From NCBI GenBank assembly GCA_000934665.2, contig JYFJ02004350.1, positions 1 through 32,756 on the forward strand: a DNA stretch of 32,756 nucleotides. Reading direction: 5' to 3'. The notes beneath the pieces are model-generated. The model was not told the origin of the DNA. It was given only the letters and a program-made list of their open reading frames with translations, and made no database searches. The DNA is from Catajapyx aquilonaris. Lineage: Eukaryota. The position numbers and the translations under genes are program-made. The first letter of the stretch is position 1. Each line of letters opens with the position of its first letter. Shown in pieces: positions 1-25,494 of the stretch.

Positions 1-317
1 AAAACAAGACCGAATTTCGAGGTAGCCTATCATTAACTGGAACACTATCATCTATTATGACTGTCAAAATTGAAAACTTAAATGCAGCCACATTTAAGCC
101 CCCTAAGGAAGTTCTTCTTACAGCCAAAAAAGCTAACTGTAACCAGCATGTACTTTGTTATAGCTATAACAAAGTACATGCTGGTAAGTAAATGTGCCTG
201 AAACATTCCTATAATTTGATTTTGACTTTATATGAAATTCCCCCTCTCAGATGGCTAATCCCCCTCATTATGTCATTACCTCCCCCTCATTTTTGGGGGG
301 TAGGGTTGGCAGCTCTG

Positions 318-560
318 TATGAATAGACATATGCAAAGACATGCAACATGCTCAGATGTAATAATATATTTTCTGAAAGAGATGTAAAATGGCATCCCAT
401 TGGAAAGGCCATCTGTGCATGACACCCAGAAGCATAATATGCTTTGTTGTAATTTACATGAAGAGTGTATGAAGACATGATTAGAAATGTATACTGTACA
501 TGCAAAATTGTCTATAAAGTATGTTATTCGCATCTAGGGTTTTTTACTCCCTCTGTCCAA
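318..560 (+). pseudogene. 3' remnant of an upstream zinc-finger gene (unit 0): end of terminal finger plus conserved 3'UTR block
   Basis: tatgaatagacatatgcaaagacatgc...ctcagatgtaa matches the terminal-finger ends of units 2/3 (MNRHMRRH...VQM*). It is followed by the shared 3'UTR block aaatggcatcccattggaaaggccatctgtgc. Sequence 5' of ~317 is unrelated to fingers. Confidence 0.7.
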
Positions 561-810
561 CAGGAACTAGCACAGATAGATGGCTCTTGAGTCCTAGAAA
601 AGCCACAATTGACAGGAATGGTGAGGACACTCCGGGATTTTAATCGCCCCAATCCCCAGTTACCAGTATTGGACTAGGCCCGGTCATGCGCTTCCTATAC
701 TGACTATATTCTAATCAATGTTACCAGGATTTACCATTGAAATCCAAGTGTCTCGCACAATATGTTGTAATCAAGCACATGTCCACGGTTTTTGAGCTAA
801 GCGTATTAAA

Positions 811-1064
811 TGTAATGGCTAGCGGCTATCTCTGAGCTGGACAAGTAGCGGCTACTCTTGGCGTAGGAATCGCGCTTAGACGCATCCTTCTCTCTCAGGT
901 GGCGATGGGAATGCACCCACAAAAGAAAAAGAAAAAAGAAGAAAAAAAAACCAGCCGTTGAATCAAAGATGGCCGAAGAAGAACTTCTCTAGTGAAGACA
1001 CGAGGAGGAGGGTCCTGCGGCTTTAACTTCCCGACGATTTCAACTTGGATTCAGGCATAGCAAG
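811..1064 (+). promoter_or_regulatory. Unit 1 promoter cassette and putative non-coding exon 1
   Basis: TAGCGGCTATC (820), GTAGCGGCTACT (845), GGAATCGCGCTTA (866), GGTGGCGATGGGAATGCACC (898), A-tract, AATCAAAGATGGCCGA (961, YY1-like). Donor CAAG|GTGGGC at 1064/1065 and acceptor TTGCAG ending 1172, just before the ATG. The cassette recurs before every unit. Confidence 0.7.
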
Positions 1065-1176
1065 GTGGGCACTACTTGGTTGACCTTTGCCCGCCACACC
1101 ACAGAGAAAATGTTCCTCCTGTGCAGCTGATTTGTGTGCTGCTTCATGTGCTGATGTTGCTGTGCATTGCAGGGCC

Positions 1177-2355
1177 ATGTCGTTGAGGGTCAAGGAGGAG
1201 GAAGGGCTGGAAGATGATGGGGAGGTGGCTGTGGAGGAGATGGCGCAGGTGCACGTGAAAGAGGAGATCCCAACGCCCTTTGAAAATGGCGAGACAATGG
1301 GTGTCACACCCGTGGAGGTCAAAGAGGAGCCACCGGATGAGGAGATGATGGTGGCTATGCCTGGTGCTGTTGAAGAGGTAGACGACCCTTTGGTCACTAA
1401 ACCTAAAAGAAGGAAGCGGTTTGACTGCCAAGTGTGCCAGAAATCACTTGGCACCAAAGGTTATTTGGAAATTCACATGCGAAACCATACGGGAGAGAAG
1501 CCCTTTTCCTGCCAATTCTGCCAGAAGAAATTTATTGGGAAAAGTCATTTGAAAAGCCACATGAGTGTGCACACGACAGAGAGACCACATTCATGTGAGG
1601 TGTGCCAGAAAAGATTTAGTGTTATGCGGGATTTGAAAAGGCACTTGCGAATTCATACTGGGGAGAAACCATTTCAGTGTGAGGTGTGCCAGAAGAAATT
1701 TGGCGAATCATATCAGTTGAAAATTCACATGCGAATTCATACAGGGGGAAAACCATATAGTTGTGAGGTGTGCCATGAAAAATTTAATTTACCAATTCAT
1801 TTGAAATATCACATTTCAATTCACACTGGCGAGAAACCATTTCAGTGTGAGGTGTGCCGGAAGAAATTTCGTCTTGAAAGTCATTTGAAAACTCACATGC
1901 GAATTCATACAGGAGAGAAACGATTCAGTTGTGACGTATGCCAGCAGAAATTCAGTGAATCAAGTAATTTGATATGCCACATGCGTATTCATACAGGAGA
2001 AAAACCATTCACTTGTGAGGTGTGCCAGATGCAGTTTCGTAATTCAAATGGTTTGAAAAGGCACATGCAAATTCACACAGGTGAGAAACCATTTACTTGT
2101 GAGGTGTGCCAGAAGAAGTTACGTACATCAAGTAAGTTGAAAACTCACATGCAAATTCATACAGGAGACAAACCTTTTAGTTGTGAGGTGTGCCAGAACA
2201 AATTTCGTGATTCAAGTGAGTTGAAAAAGCATTTGCGAATTCATACAGGGGAGAAACCATTTAGTTGCAAATATTGCCAGAAGGCGTTTAGTGACTCATC
2301 TGGTATGAAGAGACATATGCGAAGACACGCAGGTGACAGGCCGGTTCAGGTGTAA
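1177..2355 (+). CDS. C2H2 zinc-finger protein, unit 1: acidic psi-KxE domain fused directly to 11 fingers (392 aa, single coding exon)
   Basis: The ATG at 1177 follows a splice acceptor (cattgcag|ggccATG), as in the paralogs. 11 CxxC-x12-HxxxH repeats with TGEKP-type linkers; N-terminus has three VKEE motifs and DDPL. Confidence 0.93.
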   Translation: MSLRVKEEEGLEDDGEVAVEEMAQVHVKEEIPTPFENGETMGVTPVEVKEEPPDEEMMVAMPGAVEEVDDPLVTKPKRRKRFDCQVCQKSLGTKGYLEIHMRNHTGEKPFSCQFCQKKFIGKSHLKSHMSVHTTERPHSCEVCQKRFSVMRDLKRHLRIHTGEKPFQCEVCQKKFGESYQLKIHMRIHTGGKPYSCEVCHEKFNLPIHLKYHISIHTGEKPFQCEVCRKKFRLESHLKTHMRIHTGEKRFSCDVCQQKFSESSNLICHMRIHTGEKPFTCEVCQMQFRNSNGLKRHMQIHTGEKPFTCEVCQKKLRTSSKLKTHMQIHTGDKPFSCEVCQNKFRDSSELKKHLRIHTGEKPFSCKYCQKAFSDSSGMKRHMRRHAGDRPVQV

Positions 2356-2825
2356 TTTCTTTTCTGAAGGAAATGTGAAATGGCAGCCCATTGGAAAGAC
2401 CATCTGTGCATAACACCCTGAAACATCTGCTTTGTTGTAATTATATTTACATAGAGAGTGTGTGAAAACATTATTAGAAATGTACTGCAGTACATGGAAG
2501 ATGCACAATATAAAGCGAGCTATGCTCACCTTCGCTTATTTATTTCCTTTGCCCCCCCCACACACGTCACTCATAAGCATGATGAGGTACAGACATCTCA
2601 GTGAGATGCACACCAGGTGTATTTCGTGGCCAAAAGCTCCCCGCAAACCTAATAGTTCATTACTGGAAGCCTCGACATCCTTTCTGAAATTAATTATTCG
2701 AACATAATACGTACATTCAGCAACATTTTAAACTTATTATACTATTGCAAAGATGGAGGCGACTTCTGACAACTTGAGTGCATTTTAAATGGATTATGAT
2801 CAATATTTCCATATTCGTGCAATAA

Positions 2826-3035
2826 GTAGCGGCTATCTGAGAGCAGCAGTCGCCAGTAGCGGCGACTGGCAGGGAAGGAGTAGCGCTTAAGGCCTTCCTT
2901 CTCTGTTGTGGTGGCGATGGGAATGCGCCCTCATTTGCATTTTAAAAAATCGAACCAAAGATGGCCGACGAAGAGTGTCCGTCGTGAAGAGACGAGAAGA
3001 GCGTCCGTTGCCTCTCTTCCCTCGCCTGGAACTTG
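2826..3035 (+). promoter_or_regulatory. Unit 2 promoter cassette and putative non-coding exon 1
   Basis: GTAGCGGCTATC (2826), GTAGCGGCGACT (2856), GGAGTAGCGCTTAA, GGTGGCGATGGGAATGCGCC, ATTTGCAT, AACCAAAGATGGCCGA (2953). Putative donor CTTG|GTAGGT at 3036. Confidence 0.65.
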
Positions 3036-3197
3036 GTAGGTTGAGCTGATTGCATCCGCCCCACGCAAAGCATGACATGGTGTCACTTCAGCCATCCAAA
3101 GCATGACCACGGAATTAGATCTGAAGGAAAACAGAACGATGGTAGCTAGGCCTGTGTCCATCTAACATGAGCTGGTTGCATTGTGTATTACAGGACC

Positions 3198-6100
3198 ATG
3201 GCATTGCTGCCCATGAGAGTGAAGAAAGAAGAAGAGCTTGATGGAGAAGAGGAGGACATCACAGTGGATGAGGAGACTTGGAGGCTGCGGTTGAAGGAGG
3301 AGACCCCTTCTTGCTTTGATGGTGGCTCTGCTCTCATAGAAGACACGCTTCGTGAGGTAAAGGAGGAAGCAGGGGAGGAGGAGGAGGAGATGGTGGTGGC
3401 CATGCCTGGGGAGGTTGATGTTGAAGATGACCCTTTATCTGTTGGTTCTGGAAGGATGAGTGGGGTATGTCATCTGATTAAAATGTGAAATAATGTGACA
3501 GTATATTTTGAATATGCTGCAGTGATGTGAAGGATGATGTGTATAACTTGCATTTTCCTTACTCATTTACATACTTTAGGGGAAGGGAATGCTTAGCCCA
3601 GATGTGTTAGCCTTTGGTGACCAATATTCTTTCAGCCAGTGTTTAGTCATATTCTCCCATCTCCATCACCTTGAGCTATCATCCTTGTGCCAAAGCCTTA
3701 CTTCTGGTCTGTTGTACCCCGCCTCTCCTTTGAACTTTGACACTGATGGAATTGGAACTGTCAGCCCGCATTATACGTATTTGTTGCATGATGAATCATA
3801 ATTATGTGCGCAACTAGGGTTGTAAAAAAAGCCAGATATTTTGCCTGCCCGAAAAAAAACCTTTTGGGAAAAAATTGTTTTCCTCATAATATATTTACTT
3901 TTTTCCCAATGATTTGGGCTTTTTTTTTTTTTTGCACACTACCAAGTTCTTATTATTTCCCACTGTTCAGAAAAGTCAAATTAATTAATAGCTGAAATAA
4001 ATTAAGGAAAACGAACCACACTACATTTGATTCTGGATTTTTGGTGGAGGATAACCTGAAGGACTTCAGGAACCAATCACTGCATCAAAAGTGTTTTCGG
4101 TGGGAATATTTTGTCACTGTTTAGGCCAAAAAAGAGTCCATATTGCAGTGATTTGGGAGACTCTTTTGTTGTATACTTTGCTTCATTTCACTGGCTAAGA
4201 AGCCAATATTATAATACAGTATGATAGACGGCAGTCACAATAATGTACCCCATAAGTGTTTTATGAAAAACGCCTACACTGGTTGATGTTATGTCACATT
4301 ATATTTTTTTTACATTATTGATATTTCATATTTTTTGCTCCATTGTTTTCATGCCAAATCATATTGTTACTTGAAGATCACCAAAGACCAGTTGGCAATT
4401 TCAACTGGTTTTCTTGCTGCTTGGTTTCCTTTCATCTCCATGATCAAAATTTAGTCATCCAAAACGTTATATCCGTCCAGTTTATTGGCATTTGCCAGGT
4501 ATTTGCGTTAGATGAAAATGTTGAAATGGGCAGCAAAATGCATGATAATTATAACTGGCAAATAACCTGACAATCTCTTTGGATATTTGTTGATATAATT
4601 ACACATTACATGTAAAATTGGATTTGATGATTGAAACCATTTTAAAACAAGGGGACAGCAAAAGATAATGATGTATTTTGTTTTGGTCCTGCATAATTTA
4701 TGGATGAGCTAATATTGCAATTTTGTGGCTAGTTTCCTTAATCAGTGTGCAGTAATGCGTAATGCAGCATATGCCTATGGGAAGCAGAAAACTAGGGTAC
4801 TTGTTGCAAAATTGGTGATCTGGCTATAACAAACCTCAGTTATAACATAGTGTTTTTCCTCGGCCCCTTGAAGACTGTTATATCCAGATTCAACTGCACT
4901 AGATGTGGGCTGTCGAATGGTATCGTCATCATTATAGGAGTGCAGCAAGTCATCATAATATAATTGACGGCTTTTCGTGTGTTTGTCCAGGGTGAGATGC
5001 CAGTCAGATGCATCTTGTACCATGACCCTTTGCATGGCCATGAGAGTGGCAGACGTGTGCAGGGAGGGAGGATGTGCCACCTTTACTTTATCTTATACCT
5101 TGAGAGGGGCATTGTGTACTACATTCACAGTTGGGGACACAAGTATTTTTGGACAAGTTTTGGCAAGGGTGCACTAGTTGGAAATTTTAAGGTAAGTGCA
5201 TTAAAACCTTGACGCAGGTGATGGATATGTTCAAAATTATTCAACTGTTTCAAGTACATTCAGATGTGATGGTTGGGGAGGGGGCATGTGCTGCTCATTC
5301 CTCTGACACATACTGTTATTGTCTGTCTTATGAATATCTCAGGCTGTCGCACTGTGTGATGTAAGCGTATTACAAATGCTACAAGAGACTTTGCTATAAG
5401 GCGTGCCTTCCCAATAGCCAAAAGACATGTTGAAATCTTTACTACATCCACCCTCCATAATGGTAATTGATATGCTGCAATTCAATTTCCAGGAAATGCA
5501 AGAGGAGGATCAAGTCAAGAAGGAAATGATTACTAGGACCTGTGATAGCGGCAAGCCATTTGATTGCCAAGTGTGCCAGAAAAAGTTTTGGAATGCAAGT
5601 ACTTTGAAAATTCACATGCGAATTCATACAGGCGCGAAACCATTTAGTTGTGAAGTGTGCCAGAAAAATTTTTGTGTGTCAGGTAATTGGAAATGTCACA
5701 TGCAAATTCACACGGGAGAAAAACCATTTACTTGTGAGGTATGCCAGAAAAAGTTTCGCGAATCGAGTAAGTTGAAAGCCCACATGCGAATTCATACAGG
5801 TGAGAAACCACATCAGTGTCAGGTGTGCCAGAAACGATTTATTACATCAAGTGACTTGAAAAAGCACATGCGAATTCATACAGGAGAAAACCCATTTAGT
5901 TGTGAGATATGCCAGAAGGAGTATCGCCATTCAAATACGTTGAAATCCCACATGTCAATTCATACAGGCGAGAAACCACATCAGTGTCAGGTGTGCCAGA
6001 AACGGTTTATTACATCTGATTGTTTGAAAGGTCACATGCGCCATCATACAGGGGAGAAACCATTTCAGTGTGAGGTGTGCCAGAAGAAGTTTAGTCTGTC

Positions 6101-18323: not shown

Positions 18324-18564
18324 TGTAATGACTAGCGGCTATCGCTGAGCTGGACAAGTAGCGGCGACTCTTGGCGTGGCAATCGCGCTTAGACGCATCC
18401 TTCTCTCTCAGGTGGCGATGGGAATGCACCCACAAATGAATGGGAAGAAAAAAAAGAAAAAGAAATCAAAGATGGCCGAAGAAGAACTTCTGTTGTGAAG
18501 ACACGAGGAGGGTCCTGCGACTTTAACTTCCCGAAGATTTCAACTTGGATTCAGGCATAGCAAG
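18324..18564 (+). promoter_or_regulatory. Unit 7 promoter cassette and putative non-coding exon 1
   Basis: Nearly identical to unit 1 (811-1064): TAGCGGCTATC, GTAGCGGCGACT (18358), GGTGGCGATGGGAATGCACC, AATCAAAGATGGCCGA (18464). Donor at 18565, acceptor ending 18672. Confidence 0.7.
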
Positions 18565-20344: not shown

Positions 20345-20720
20345 TTTTTTAAATATTTGCGGCGTTTTGAAGCGGAATTGAGTTTAGCTGTAAATGGTAG
20401 GAATGCACTTCACGACGGTGGGGATCTGTGTTCAAAATTGGGAAACTCTACCTCTTGCTCTACCTACAGCAGAACTTGAGTTAGAAGGAAGAAAAAAAAG
20501 TAGCAACAACAAGATGTTGGATCATTGTTGAAATCTATGCTATGGTATTACTTAGGGGCTGCCACCCCTAATATATAATTATTTTTGTCGCAAACAATTC
20601 GGTCTCGTGTCATTTAAAATATTCCATCCTGATTCAGAAACCTTTTCAGTTTGGGATGTGCGAGCCGAAATATAATTTATGACAAGTCATTTACAAACCC
20701 ACATTAAAACTCATATTGCA

Positions 20721-20810
20721 GAGACACCATTTTAGTTGCAAATATTGCCAGAAGAGAATTACTGTAGTCAGGCAAGTAGTACGAAGGGTACACCTGCGGT
20801 TGCACCTCGG
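20721..20810 (+). pseudogene. Orphan degenerate C2H2 finger
   Basis: Reads FSCKYCQKRITVVRQVVRRVHLRLH. The DNA tttagttgcaaatattgccagaag is identical to the start of the last finger of unit 1. Confidence 0.6.
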
Positions 20811-21074: not shown

Positions 21075-21300
21075 AGTCGCCGCTACGCGATTTATGTCCT
21101 AATAGACCACGAAAAAAAAAGGGAAGATCATCAAAGTTAATGAAATTTAGAAGCTAATCTAGAGATAAATTCTGGTGATCATTGAATAATTATCTAGGGA
21201 TTTCTAGAAATAATAAGATTTAGGGATTTGTGTTCTCTAATGACTGGCAACACTTCCGCCGCATAAAAAAAAAGAAAAGAGAAATCAAAGATGGCCGCCG
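21075..21300 (+). promoter_or_regulatory. Putative promoter of the Harbinger-derived gene, sharing motifs with the zinc-finger cassette
   Basis: AGTCGCCGCTAC at 21075-21086 is the reverse complement of GTAGCGGCGACT. An A-tract precedes AATCAAAGATGGCCG at 21283-21297. Confidence 0.6.
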
Positions 21301-21418
21301 ACTGAAGCTTGTGGTTCCACGCTTGTTCTTTTGATTCGATCTTGAAGAAGTGTAGAGGCGTAGAGAGGACATAGCCTCGGAGACGGAGATCGAGAGAGGG
21401 AGGGAAGGAGGGAGCGCG

Positions 21419-24353
21419 ATGGCTGGACGTGAGCTGGAGTTGCAGCGGCTGCAGGTTGATCTCCTCCTAGTGTACTTGTACTACCGGAGGAGGGTGCGGC
21501 AGAGGCATGCTCTGGCACTACAGGCCCAGCAAGAGGCCCAGCAGGAGGCCCAACAGGAGGCCCAGCAGGAGGCCCAACAGGAGGCCCAACAGGCCCAGCA
21601 AGAGGCCCAGCAGGCCCAGCAACAGGCCCAGCAGGCCCAGCAACAGGCCCAGCAGGCCCAGCAAGAGGCCCCTCGGAAGCATCGACGGAAGCGGAGATAT
21701 GGAGTGTCAGAACTGTGGCAGAAGAGGAAGGAGCTGGGTCAGTTCCACACTCATGTAAGTAATTTTTTCAATACCTCGCACATACTAGATATCTGCAAGA
21801 ATTTCCTGCCCAGGCAAGGGCAACTATATTGTACCGGTATGTGTTGTAACGTGTAATTGTTGTAACCAGTTGATAGCCAACTGTGTTTGGAATGTTTAGA
21901 GCCAGGTTTGTTCTTGAGGAGCCGAACCATGAAGTCGGCTGTGTCCTCAGCTCTCACTTGTATGATACCACTTGCCTGGAGAGCTTAATGATACATCTGC
22001 TAGTTCAATGGACAGTTTATCAAAGTACTACAATGGTTTTTTGTATATTTCAGATTGAAATCAGGAGCAGGGGAGATGATGATACCTATTTCCGGGAATT
22101 CCTGCGCATGTCACCAGAAGCTTTTGACAGATTAACAGCACTCGTCCATGATAGCTTGAAGAAATATCCGACATCCGGGGAAGCGCTATCTCCTGCACAC
22201 AGGCTGGCAATAACATTGAGGTATGTATATTGACCACAAATCTTCAATTCTGCTCAAAAAAACTCAAACATGAATTACCAATAATTTATAATTACTGATA
22301 AAATGCCAATATCCTGCTCGTGCAATTCAGGAATCTGCTACAGATGTAAACATTCCCAACTACGAGGGAAAGTAGCAAGGCACTCTGAGTACATGACAAG
22401 TAGCACTTGCACTCTGGAAACAAACACTTGACAAGTGCATAAATATGGTGGGGGGACCAGTATTAAATATTAGCGTCTGCTTCATGTGACATGCCTGATG
22501 TAATATAAGTGGTGATAAGTTATATTTCAAGTGCATGATCTACCCTTACAGATATTTAGCTACTGGTGATAGCTATTATAGTGTGGGTTCTGCTTTCTGC
22601 ATTGGAGTAACAACTGTGCATGTAATAATCAAGGAGACCTGTGACGCCCTCTGGAAGATTTTGCAGCCCATATATCTTAAGGTAAGCGGGTTACATGACT
22701 TGAAAGATGGGGAGGGATTGTTGTACGTGAGTACATTGTGGCCCCAACATCATTGCACAATGCTTCTCAAATTCATATTTGTAGAATCCTCAAACTGAAG
22801 ACTGGGCCAAGGTGGCCAAAAATTATGGAGAGAGGTGGCAGTACCCGTTATGCTGCGGTGCCGTGGAGGGAAAGCATGTTGTTATTGAACAGCCCAACCT
22901 CAAGGTTTGTACTTTTAATGTACACTTTCATCCATTTTGTAACATGTGAACAGCTACCATTAACTTCTGCTTTGTATCTTCAGAAATGCGACTCAATTGT
23001 TTTGATGGCAGTAGTGGGCCCAGACTACAAATTTGTCTGTGTAGATATAGGAAATTATGGCTCCAGGGCACATGGGCATGTGTTTGGGGCCTCATACCTG
23101 GGGAAGAGACTGGCCGAGGGAAACCTGGACTTCCCCCAACCCACCACCCTCCCTCGAACAGACACTGTGGTTCCCCATGTCTTTGTAGGAGACACTGCCT
23201 TTCAACTGAAGCCGAATGTTATGAGACCCTACCCTCCAGAAGATCTCACATCCAAGAAGCGGGTTTTTAACTACAGATTGAGTCGAGCAAGGTAGGTATT
23301 AGCAGGACTTGAAACAGGAATCTCACTCTGAACTGAATAGCCTCAAATTTGTCAGTCCCCACCAGTCACACACTTATTGCATGATTTTTCTACTAGGATT
23401 GCATTTCCTTGCACAACATTGTTTTACAATGCCTACAGCATTAAGGGCGGCATTAACATAATATGCTTTAAAACCGAACATAGATGGTGATCAAGGCACA
23501 GGGACATTAGAAACGTCAGACTTCACATTAAGCATGACCTACTGCTACACAGTGTATTTTCATTGTTGTGAACCACTACTATTAAACCTATCAGACCTAC
23601 TCAACTTTGGGGTGGGTGCACCAACTCCCTCTGCGTTACCCAGTTAGTTGTTGAATTTACCGTGGCAACCTGTGTTGATGTAGAGGCACTGAACAGGCCA
23701 GGAGTACGTTGCTGAACTCAGCGGCTACCGCAGCAGAGGTAAACAAGTCGTTGCTAAACTCAGCTGTGCTGACAGCGGCTCGCAGCCGCTGAGTTTAGCA
23801 ACATCCTCTAGTTTTCTTACACCCAGCCCTAAACATAGAGGTGCGTAGGTCCCTTGGTGTGTCAGTTTACAACAGATATGGATTTGTGACATATTATGTT
23901 ATCCAGAACAGACGGAGACCTTGACTCGCCTAGACATGCGAGTGACTTCAATGTAACTTAAGCCCATGCTTTCCTTTCAGACGCTGCAGTGAAAATGCTT
24001 TTGGGATTCTCTCACAGAAGTGGAGAGTGTTCCAAAAGCCTATGCCCCTGTGCGTAGACAATGTCAGCAAGGTGACACAAGCCTGCGTGGTGCTCCACAA
24101 TTTCCTACTGGAGACAGAAGGTCAGCCTGGAGCAGTCCAGATTTATTGCCCACCAGGGTTCACCGACTTTCTGGACCCCAATGGTGGCATCCAAGAAGGC
24201 ACCTTCAGGCAGGAAACTAGTCAGTGTTTGGGCCTGGTTGACTTGTTGCCCACATCAGCCAAGAACTTTCACCATGCTGCTGGGTGCGTGCGACGTGTCT
24301 ATGCGGACTACTTTTCATCTGCACAGGGCGAGGTTCCCTGGCAGTGGAAATGA
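21419..24353 (+). CDS. PIF/Harbinger transposase-derived protein (HARBI1-like, DDE_Tnp_4-type fold), 477 aa; exons 21419-21754, 22054-22220, 22552-22681, 22785-22904, 22984-23291, 23981-24353
   Basis: Five GT-AG introns with compatible phases (0,2,0,0,2) give 1434 nt with no internal stop. Harbinger motifs: FLRMSPEAFDRL, RLAITLRYLATG, WQYPLCCGAVEGKHV, SIVLMAVV, FVGDTAFQL, FNYRLSRARRCSENAFGIL, ACVVLHNF. Confidence 0.9.
21521..21670 (+). repeat. Coding minisatellite (9/12-bp units) encoding (QQEA/QQA/QQQA)n
   Basis: caggcccagcaagaggcccagcaggaggcccaacag... in frame in exon 1 of the Harbinger-derived gene. Confidence 0.9.
23594..23851. mobile_element. Degenerate MITE in intron 5 of the Harbinger-derived gene
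   Basis: Outer inverted repeats GACCTAC...TTTGGGGTGGGTGCA / TACACCCAGCCCTAAA...GTAGGTC. Inner inverted repeats GTTGCTGAACTCAGCGGCT (23708-23726) / AGCCGCTGAGTTTAGCAAC (23784-23802), one mismatch. Confidence 0.55.
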
Positions 24354-25079
24354 CCAGGTGTCGATAAGGACTAGTAGGAAAAGTGCAAGGGGGAAGCAAC
24401 ATTCACTTAGCAGTAGAATATTGACTTTTCCTGGCCATGTCTTGAAAGTTGTTTTTAACAAAGTTGTACACATAACAATGTTATTTATTTAATTAGTGAG
24501 CTTTGTCCTGTCATAATATGCATTTGTACTTTTTAAAGTCAGCAGAAGTTGGAAACCAACAAATGGTCCAGACCTTTGTGTTATTTTTCAAACACACTGA
24601 CATAACACTAATAAATATTTGAAGTAACATCTCAGTAGTTCATTTACCTGAATTATTGTAAAATGGGAATGGATTGATGGCCATCTACTCGGAACAACAT
24701 CTTGAACACTAGACAACTGTGGTAAGGACAAGGAGATGGAAAGTCACAATATTTTCATGAGGTTTAGCCCAATTCAGAAGTTACTTTCACAGATCGGCAA
24801 CATTACGCTGACTTTAATCACCGGAATTCAGACACCATCTTCTTCACCCAAACCATCTTAAGGTCCAAGACAAAGGATTGTCAATAATAAGGGAATCCTA
24901 CACTCTGTGAAACTTCCTCCACGAGGATTAGGCATGAGCAATCATCATAGTGGATTATCGCACATGAAGTGCTGTTGATGGCAATGTTTGGCATGTACTC
25001 GTGAGTGGCAGTGGCCAAGAGAGAGGAAGCCCAAATGCTGGATCATTTTGGGCAGCTAAAGAATGAGCAGAGATGTTGG

Positions 25080-25210
25080 CCGCTATCGTGTGTTAGCGGC
25101 GACTCCGGAGACAGGGGGAGTAGCGCATAAGGACGTCCCTCGTTCTGGCGGTGGTAGGAATGCACCCCCCGGGGTCTCCAAAGGGGAAAGGGAAAAAGAT
25201 GGCTGGCCTA
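25080..25210 (+). promoter_or_regulatory. Unit 8 promoter cassette (diverged)
   Basis: GCTATCG, TAGCGGCGACT (25094), GGAGTAGCGCATAA, GGTGGTAGGAATGCACC and AAAGATGGCTGG (~25195), in the same order as in the other units. Confidence 0.6.
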
Positions 25211-25494
25211 GAGCGCACGTCCCGAAGGAGGATCCGGTGACTTGGTTGGACTCATTTCCACGTCCCCTTCTTGGCATTCACTGGGTTAGGTCGACTGGAA
25301 CACTCCCTGGTCTCCTTATAAGAGGTACTGTGCCACCCTTAAAAAAGACTGTCATTTGCTCATCTAGTTTCGCTTCATTTCATGCCCTCCTTTGCTCACA
25401 TCTCTGATATATGCTACTCCTCAGCAGCTGCCATGATTGAGGATGCTACACTTGACACGATGGCATGACCGCCACTCTTTGTGTTTGCAGGACC

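Follow-up and report, generated by a model that had tools for sequence, protein, structure and literature searches.

The tamed Harbinger genes known so far are mostly ancient, and for this reason the first steps of their taming are hidden. Among insects, the transposase-only PIF/Harbinger domestications LPLG1, BPLG1/2, APLG, and DPLG are described as single-copy genes, syntenic for 100+ My and with dN/dS values of 0.1–0.33 (PMC9710019). The plant protein ALP1, which is likewise ancient, holds the triad DGA, with two non-conservative changes, and has been shown to join PRC2 (PMC4671723, PMC5339849). In another superfamily, Tc1/mariner, a recent domestication has been described, that of LOC26532114 in the Drosophila obscura group (PMC13548663).

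The window analysed here is the whole stretch of 32,756 nucleotides of contig JYFJ02004350.1 from Catajapyx aquilonaris (assembly GCA_000934665.2). Its forward strand holds, at 21419–24353, a six-exon Harbinger transposase gene of 477 codons without internal stop, with five introns that are all GT-AG (hereafter, the window gene). The reading that best accommodates the evidence, with a probability of roughly 0.55, is that of a young, nuclease-dead scaffold under selection. The gene looks like an early stage of the known process of transposon taming, of putative benefit to the host.

Gene structure, locus, and parent family

The DDE_Tnp_4 domain (PF13359) is matched in exon 5 (E 1.6e-9) and in exon 6 (E 9.7e-6), and the coordinates of all features are collected in Table 1. 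Exon 6 ends in a derived TGA stop, located right after the last conserved motif and about 8 codons before the stop of the sibling copies. The window gene is transcribed and spliced, four of its five joints being present in run X1, the only public run with this stretch, whose kind is not recorded and which was judged to be RNA from its splicing. A single 677-nt contig of this run crosses exons 2-3-4-5 at the predicted GT..AG joints with 0 differing letters, while another RNA-like contig (21307–21539) passes from host DNA into exon 1. The joint between exons 1 and 2, which is not listed in X1, was placed by homology to the siblings and by the GT-AG rule.

Table 1. Features of the window gene and its flanks (window positions)
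Feature	Position	Strand	Remarks
Host leader/promoter piece	21260..21363	+	A-run + CAAAGATGGCCG; precedes the cluster's zinc-finger genes; stands in for the element's 5' end and TIR
Exon 1	21419..21754	+	112 codons; in-frame Gln/Ala repeat expansion 21520–21671, absent from siblings
Exon 2	22054..22220	+	2-3 joint present in run X1
Exon 3	22552..22681	+	2-3 and 3-4 joints present in run X1
Exon 4	22785..22904	+	Strand β1 with first catalytic position, and shortened loop
D239E	22866..22868	+	GAG vs GAT in siblings; first residue of the DDE triad
24-nt in-frame deletion site	22893..22904	+	P-N-L-K vs P-K-L-S-G-S-L-F-R-N-Y-K in C8818 and C6862
Intron 4	22905..22983	+	79 nt; gap-free vs both siblings; spliced out in run X1
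Exon 5 (DDE_Tnp_4)	22984..23291	+	Begins KCDSIVLM, contains NYGSRAHGHVF
D263G	23017..23019	+	Exon 5
D281H	23071..23073	+	Exon 5
D321	23191..23193	+	Exon 5; second catalytic Asp, kept
Exon 6	23981..24353	+	5-6 joint in run X1 (between: not known)
E358	23991..23993	+	Exon 6; catalytic Glu, kept
3' untranslated element remnant	24354..24581	+	Family similarity ends at 24581; transcript cover to 24606
Host zinc-finger-unit DNA	24582..25355	+	Resumes; 87% over 813 bp to a unit on C2640

The window gene sits on the plus strand within a C2H2 zinc-finger gene cluster, and the similarity of this copy to its family is limited to 21364–24581. The leader motif occurs eight more times in the window, in front of zinc-finger units, with matches of 88–97% at 18448 and 28872. 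Since this zinc-finger leader lies upstream and family similarity begins only at 21364, transcription is attributed to host sequence. The tandem zinc-finger units have in common a promoter/leader motif (GGTGGCGATGGGAATGC...A-run...AAGATGGCCG), found at 964, 2956, 7096, 11470, 14610, 16831, 18467, and 28892, of which the leader of the transposase gene (21286) represents only the downstream half. Immediately upstream of the gene, at 20636–20754, a degenerate remnant of a zinc finger suggests that a unit is broken where the element inserted, and the segment 19927–20590 is a MITE-like palindromic repeat with 34-bp units, for whose right part about 30 genome copies are listed. Apart from a weak zinc-finger remnant, the seven other frames near the window gene gave no Pfam domain.

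The TIR pattern of the family, which was found in C217, C6862, and C4875, is not found within the window, and neither TIRs nor a 3-bp TSD were found for the window copy. A MADF gene was equally missing: tblastn with the sibling's piece gave no match within the window, and none of the 76 genome matches of PF10545 falls in it, a count that is a lower bound, as the sibling's own MADF piece is likewise unlisted. Without TIRs or a partner, the window copy cannot move. Compared with an autonomous PIF/Harbinger element, it has the DDE_Tnp_4 domain and lacks the intact triad, the TIRs with their TSD, and the second (Myb/SANT/MADF) gene. A Harbinger copy may thus be pictured as having landed within the zinc-finger cluster, where it would have lost both ends and the MADF gene and come under a zinc-finger-type leader; the alignment shows the resulting state, from which we infer the order of these events.

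The parent family is still present in the genome. Its members (C8818, C6862 with C4875, C217, C1305, and C1679) share the same six exons and 83–90% nucleotide identity with the window copy, introns included, and the siblings are 86–87% identical to the window gene in amino acids. C8818 (87%) has a 453-aa open frame, the whole catalytic core (D-G, SGS..NYK, AD), and a convergent MADF gene (PF10545), and is possibly the most recently active copy. This copy (18–4700) shows a low omega, 5 of its private changes altering an amino acid and 13 being silent, and its contig ends before either TIR. C217 is internally deleted, with 39-bp TIRs (97%) and a TTA duplication. C6862 and C4875, split near the end of exon 5, hold the two element ends, each with a TGA duplication, and are probably the halves of one copy. 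Other family copies thus carry TIRs and 3-bp TSDs, and the window copy is without all that its relatives retain: the intact core and the MADF gene of C8818, and the TIRs and TSD of C217.

In intron 5, two of the siblings carry a Tourist-like MITE of 185 bp, with TAA as its duplication (L016, that is, C8818 2078–2262; L035, 1132–1316), which is missing from the window. Three other family fragments (L017, L036, and L044) also lie near zinc-finger arrays, a hint of insertion bias unless such arrays are simply common. Outside the genome, the search for an ortholog of the window gene among 214 candidates of 182–2000 aa, weak evidence in itself, gave a best protein of 58% identity.

The catalytic core and the missing loop

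The conservation of the core was assessed against an alignment of 120 outside homologues. An initial annotation of this DNA had proposed that the first catalytic Asp is replaced by Glu, that the NYK segment is deleted, and that the SD position reads AH, with the second Asp and the Glu kept. The first change is real: position 239 is E in the window gene, D in 108 of the 111 homologues with a residue there, and E in none, the alignment of 120 rows offering no precedent. The resulting triad is E239-D321-E358, with D321 (VGD) and E358 (SENAFG) retained as that annotation had read them. Position 281 is H, a residue found in none of 119 homologues, 118 of which have D; the reading AH stands, but only the loss of D is new, as the sibling already has AD. 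A third conserved Asp, present in 101 of 120 homologues, had been overlooked and is lost as well (D263G).

As for the segment, exactly 8 codons (24 nt) are missing from the window DNA by comparison with C8818. Since the siblings C8818 and C6862 keep the full segment and intron 4 is gap-free, the 24 nt were deleted from the exon, in agreement with the deletion first proposed. The G, S, and Y of this segment are present in 105/115, 109/114, and 108/114 outside homologues. From the D1 motif to S-I-V-L there are 20 residues in 92 of the 97 homologues that could be read by pattern (23 of the 120 could not) and 12 in the window gene, a spacing shared by one outside predicted protein.

It is very improbable that the gap is an artefact, created by the assembly or the gene model, and that a different splice restores the segment. 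An in-frame alternative acceptor at 22952–22953 would add 10 residues, and contigs lose rare isoforms; however, the lost motif is not what those 10 residues spell, the DNA itself lacks the 24 nt, and intron 4 holds no hidden copy of them. Moreover, siblings with the same acceptor have the full loop, and their intron 4 aligns gap-free to that of the window gene. Exon 4 reads ...ERWQYPLCCGAVEGKHVVIEQPNLK, with its GT donor at 22905, and is spliced to exon 5; the proposed continuation into KCDSIVLM...NYGSRAHGHVF is confirmed by the GT-AG model and by the X1 contig over the joint, where run X1 has only the exact 22904/22984 junction. As this contig crosses the junction without differences, the gap does not stem from faulty assembly or from an artefact of splicing. 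Alternative splicing and assembly error were rejected on the DNA, the gap-free intron, and the X1 joint.

Judged from the sequence, the product of the window gene most likely no longer cuts DNA, owing to D239E, the loss of the β1–β2 loop, D263G, and D281H. The same D-to-E change yields a catalytically inactive mutant in HIV-1 integrase, D64E (PMC2615443), and one triad mutation is stated to lower Ping transposition drastically (PMC4671723); from these two cases, and from the lack of E at D1 in all 111 homologues, the proposed nuclease-dead state is considered likely. A protein that is still a nuclease, with an E-D-E triad of altered metal or substrate preference, and serves either the host or non-autonomous copies, would be in keeping with the conservative nature of the change and with the retention of D321, E358, and the fold-forming residues. 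This alternative is nonetheless improbable, as E at position 239 is without precedent in the homologues, the near-invariant loop residues and D281 are also gone, D64E kills the retroviral integrase (PMC2615443), and the copy has neither a partner in cis nor ends.

The idea of an altered scaffold, raised in the same annotation, gains support from the spared conserved structural sites and from the location of the deletion in an inter-strand loop. Positions in the fold were taken from an AlphaFold model of the homologue P0006 (77-row alignment, pLDDT 86.5). In this model, the deleted segment forms the loop between the D1-bearing strand and the next strand, the equivalent of D263 lies after the second strand, and that of D281 starts the helix behind the third. 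Both strands are left intact by the deletion in the model, so the loss of the loop need not break the fold. A fold search gave only distant transposases, such as piggyBac (Z 9.7, rmsd 4.8, 230 aligned) and Tn5 (Z 8.5, rmsd 6.2, 247 aligned). Searches for solved relatives by sequence gave none, and no solved Harbinger structure was found; the contact with DNA that the loop presumably makes is therefore assigned by analogy only.

Selection, neutral decay, and repeated loss of the loop

Selection was analysed with a codon model of three rows (the window gene, C8818, and C6862 with C4875 as one), all paralogs, over 360 codons of exons 2–6. The window branch shows an omega of 0.655 vs 0.184 for the sibling branches (p=0.005), the background value being based on two short branches and the window branch taking in the stem of the siblings (7 of 28 polarisable changes fall there, and 15 of 43 changes are unpolarised). 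Against 1, the window-branch omega is not significant (p=0.09); exons 2–5 give 0.52 (p=0.018) and exon 6 alone 1.7, which is not significant. When sites are divided solely by the outside homologues, with position 250 (at the edge of the deletion) omitted, omega on this branch is 0.73–0.84 at variable sites and 0.15–0.43 at conserved ones, and a mixture of activity followed by neutral decay is rejected at three thresholds (p=0.003, 0.005, and 0.015). Only 3 of 94 conserved sites, defined as those where at least 70% of the homologues keep the reference residue, are substituted in the window gene, and all three are Asp, with a post hoc chance of 2e-4, or of 4e-3 for any single residue type.

On the window side, the introns and UTR hold 12 indels of frameshift length per 121 substitutions, and exons 2–6 hold 0, while the nearest copies, C217 and C1305, are frameshifted in the same exons. 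The private differences of the window copy after its split from these two (10/216 and 18/308, respectively) set an upper bound on its age, and a neutral gene of those ages would keep frame and splice sites with a probability of 4e-4 to 6e-5. Recent immobilisation, at 1–1.5% divergence, would raise the probability of an open frame to 0.18–0.08, and three conserved hits would be expected, but the predicted branch omega is 0.26–0.29.

The main alternative, possible but less probable than a scaffold under selection, is a transcribed relic: a truncated copy behind a host leader, decaying neutrally, whose frame is open by luck and whose catalytic changes are ordinary first hits. The omega that is not significantly below 1 and the young age would agree with it, and immobilisation within about 1.5% divergence would make it plausible. 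In addition, an open frame was the reason for picking the window gene out of at least 153 family matches, and the half-copy C6862 has also been hit twice at conserved sites (G240D and G274V). Expression by itself is no sign of host function, since fish Harbingers are expressed as transposons (PMC9179366). On the other hand, recent immobilisation does not yield the observed 0.655, under old immobilisation the frame should be broken and 9–11 conserved sites hit, the mixture model is rejected, and the three hits all fall on Asp. Neither of the simple neutral histories fits the data. Counting against the scaffold reading are the omega not significantly below 1 overall, the stop that comes about 8 codons early, and the failure to find an ortholog.

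Under the preferred reading, that of a scaffold, selection appears, from the statistics, to preserve an open frame and an RNase-H-like fold and to let the surface drift. By analogy with described systems, the most likely job of the protein would be to bind MADF/Myb proteins supplied in trans, as a partner that is itself catalytically dead. At first it may work against its own recent family, as a sink or poison, and it may serve as a chromatin adaptor like ALP1 and HDP1.

The window gene is not alone in its shortened loop. Among 26 exon 4 loci of the same genome, three have lost part of it in frame, namely the window gene (-8), C839 (-7), and C41 (-9), with the donor kept in each. In a tree, the window gene groups with loop-intact siblings (100/100), C839 with the loop-intact C3470 (97/93), and C41 stands apart, so that the three losses are independent. 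In a biased pick of 20 further stretches, chosen for weak scores or long frames, six were readable across the loop (C834 -8, C1549 -5, two -2, and two full); breakpoints and lineages differ among the window gene, C41, C839, and C834. All 17 readable loops among the 30 best-scoring Pfam loci, by contrast, have 20–24 residues.

Three of these loci deserve a short description. C41 (~139.4–141.5 kb, minus strand) holds a 435-aa, six-exon open Harbinger-derived gene with Arg in place of the SD Asp and Gly in place of the second catalytic Asp; its surroundings gave no TIR or MADF match, and it is probably an older tamed gene. Its search for orthologs gave 0 at E<=1e-12 among 151 candidates, a threshold that family members failed too, which makes the result uninformative. 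C834 (~56 kb) is a Harbinger-like frame without the NYK part of the loop or the G..SD segment (-6), with the first two Asp kept. C839 (4700–6350) keeps its DDE, and at an A-run its tail passes into another frame.

That a single loop is lost repeatedly suggests a functional element of Harbinger transposases, and no report of its convergent loss was found in the texts searched, although the ALP1 alignment figure may bear on it. Loop deletions can also arise without selection, as indicated by C839, which combines D, D, and E with a broken tail, and by C3470, its nearest relative, in which a 4-nt repeat borders the corresponding segment; the loop may simply be where deletions are tolerated. A more far-reaching proposal is regarded as rather unlikely: that domestication is observed here while under way, next to a sibling with intact catalysis, and by a repeatable route, in which several independent Harbinger lineages delete the β1–β2 (SGS..NYK) loop, and often the SD Asp too, to give a fold-intact, DNA-blind, partner-binding protein that would damp its own family or feed the host MADF/chromatin network.

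Comparison with known systems

Like the insect PLGs, the window gene is an intact, intron-containing Harbinger transposase gene of an animal genome, without TIRs, TSD, or an adjacent MADF partner (PMC9710019). Unlike them, it has an intact sibling with 87% identity, an omega of about 0.66, and no ortholog found. Of the criteria for domestication given in the same source (PMC9710019), it shows the intact coding region, the lack of TIRs and TSD, and spliced transcription; however, for now it falls short of the full set, as related copies exist at 86–87% amino-acid identity. The set also includes a dN/dS significantly below 1, for which the window branch gives 0.655 (p=0.09) and exons 2–5 give 0.52 (p=0.018), and syntenic orthologs in other species, for which the best protein reached 58%.

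With ALP1 and HDP1, it has in common the origin from a Harbinger nuclease and an altered triad from which a nuclease-dead state has been deduced (PMC4671723, PMC5339849). A cofactor of this type would be expected to bind a Myb partner and PRC2 or an acetyltransferase complex and to have lost triad residues; of these features the window gene presents the triad loss, at one of three positions and by a conservative change. In place of the DGA of ALP1 (PMC4671723), its triad reads E-D-E, accompanied by the loop deletion and two other Asp losses. The likeness to plant ALP1 drawn in the initial annotation thus holds as an analogy only, the window gene being young, with one conservative triad change and no ortholog found.

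LOC26532114 resembles the window gene in being young, lineage-restricted, under mild constraint, and near its parent family, with its triad lost (PMC13548663). It belongs to another superfamily and keeps mainly the DNA-binding part, whereas the window gene keeps the whole nuclease fold (PMC13548663).

By analogy with these cases, the window gene would be like the start of a known route, on which Harbinger nucleases are tamed as non-catalytic proteins (PMC4671723, PMC5339849, PMC9710019). The state before, exemplified by C8818, and the state after, in the window gene, differ by about 13% of residues, a distance at which it can be asked which changes end cutting, which surfaces stay, and whether silencing of the parent family is the first benefit. 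The window gene stands out by its youth, its intact sibling, the leader that it has captured, and a loop loss that recurs in other Harbinger genes of the genome.
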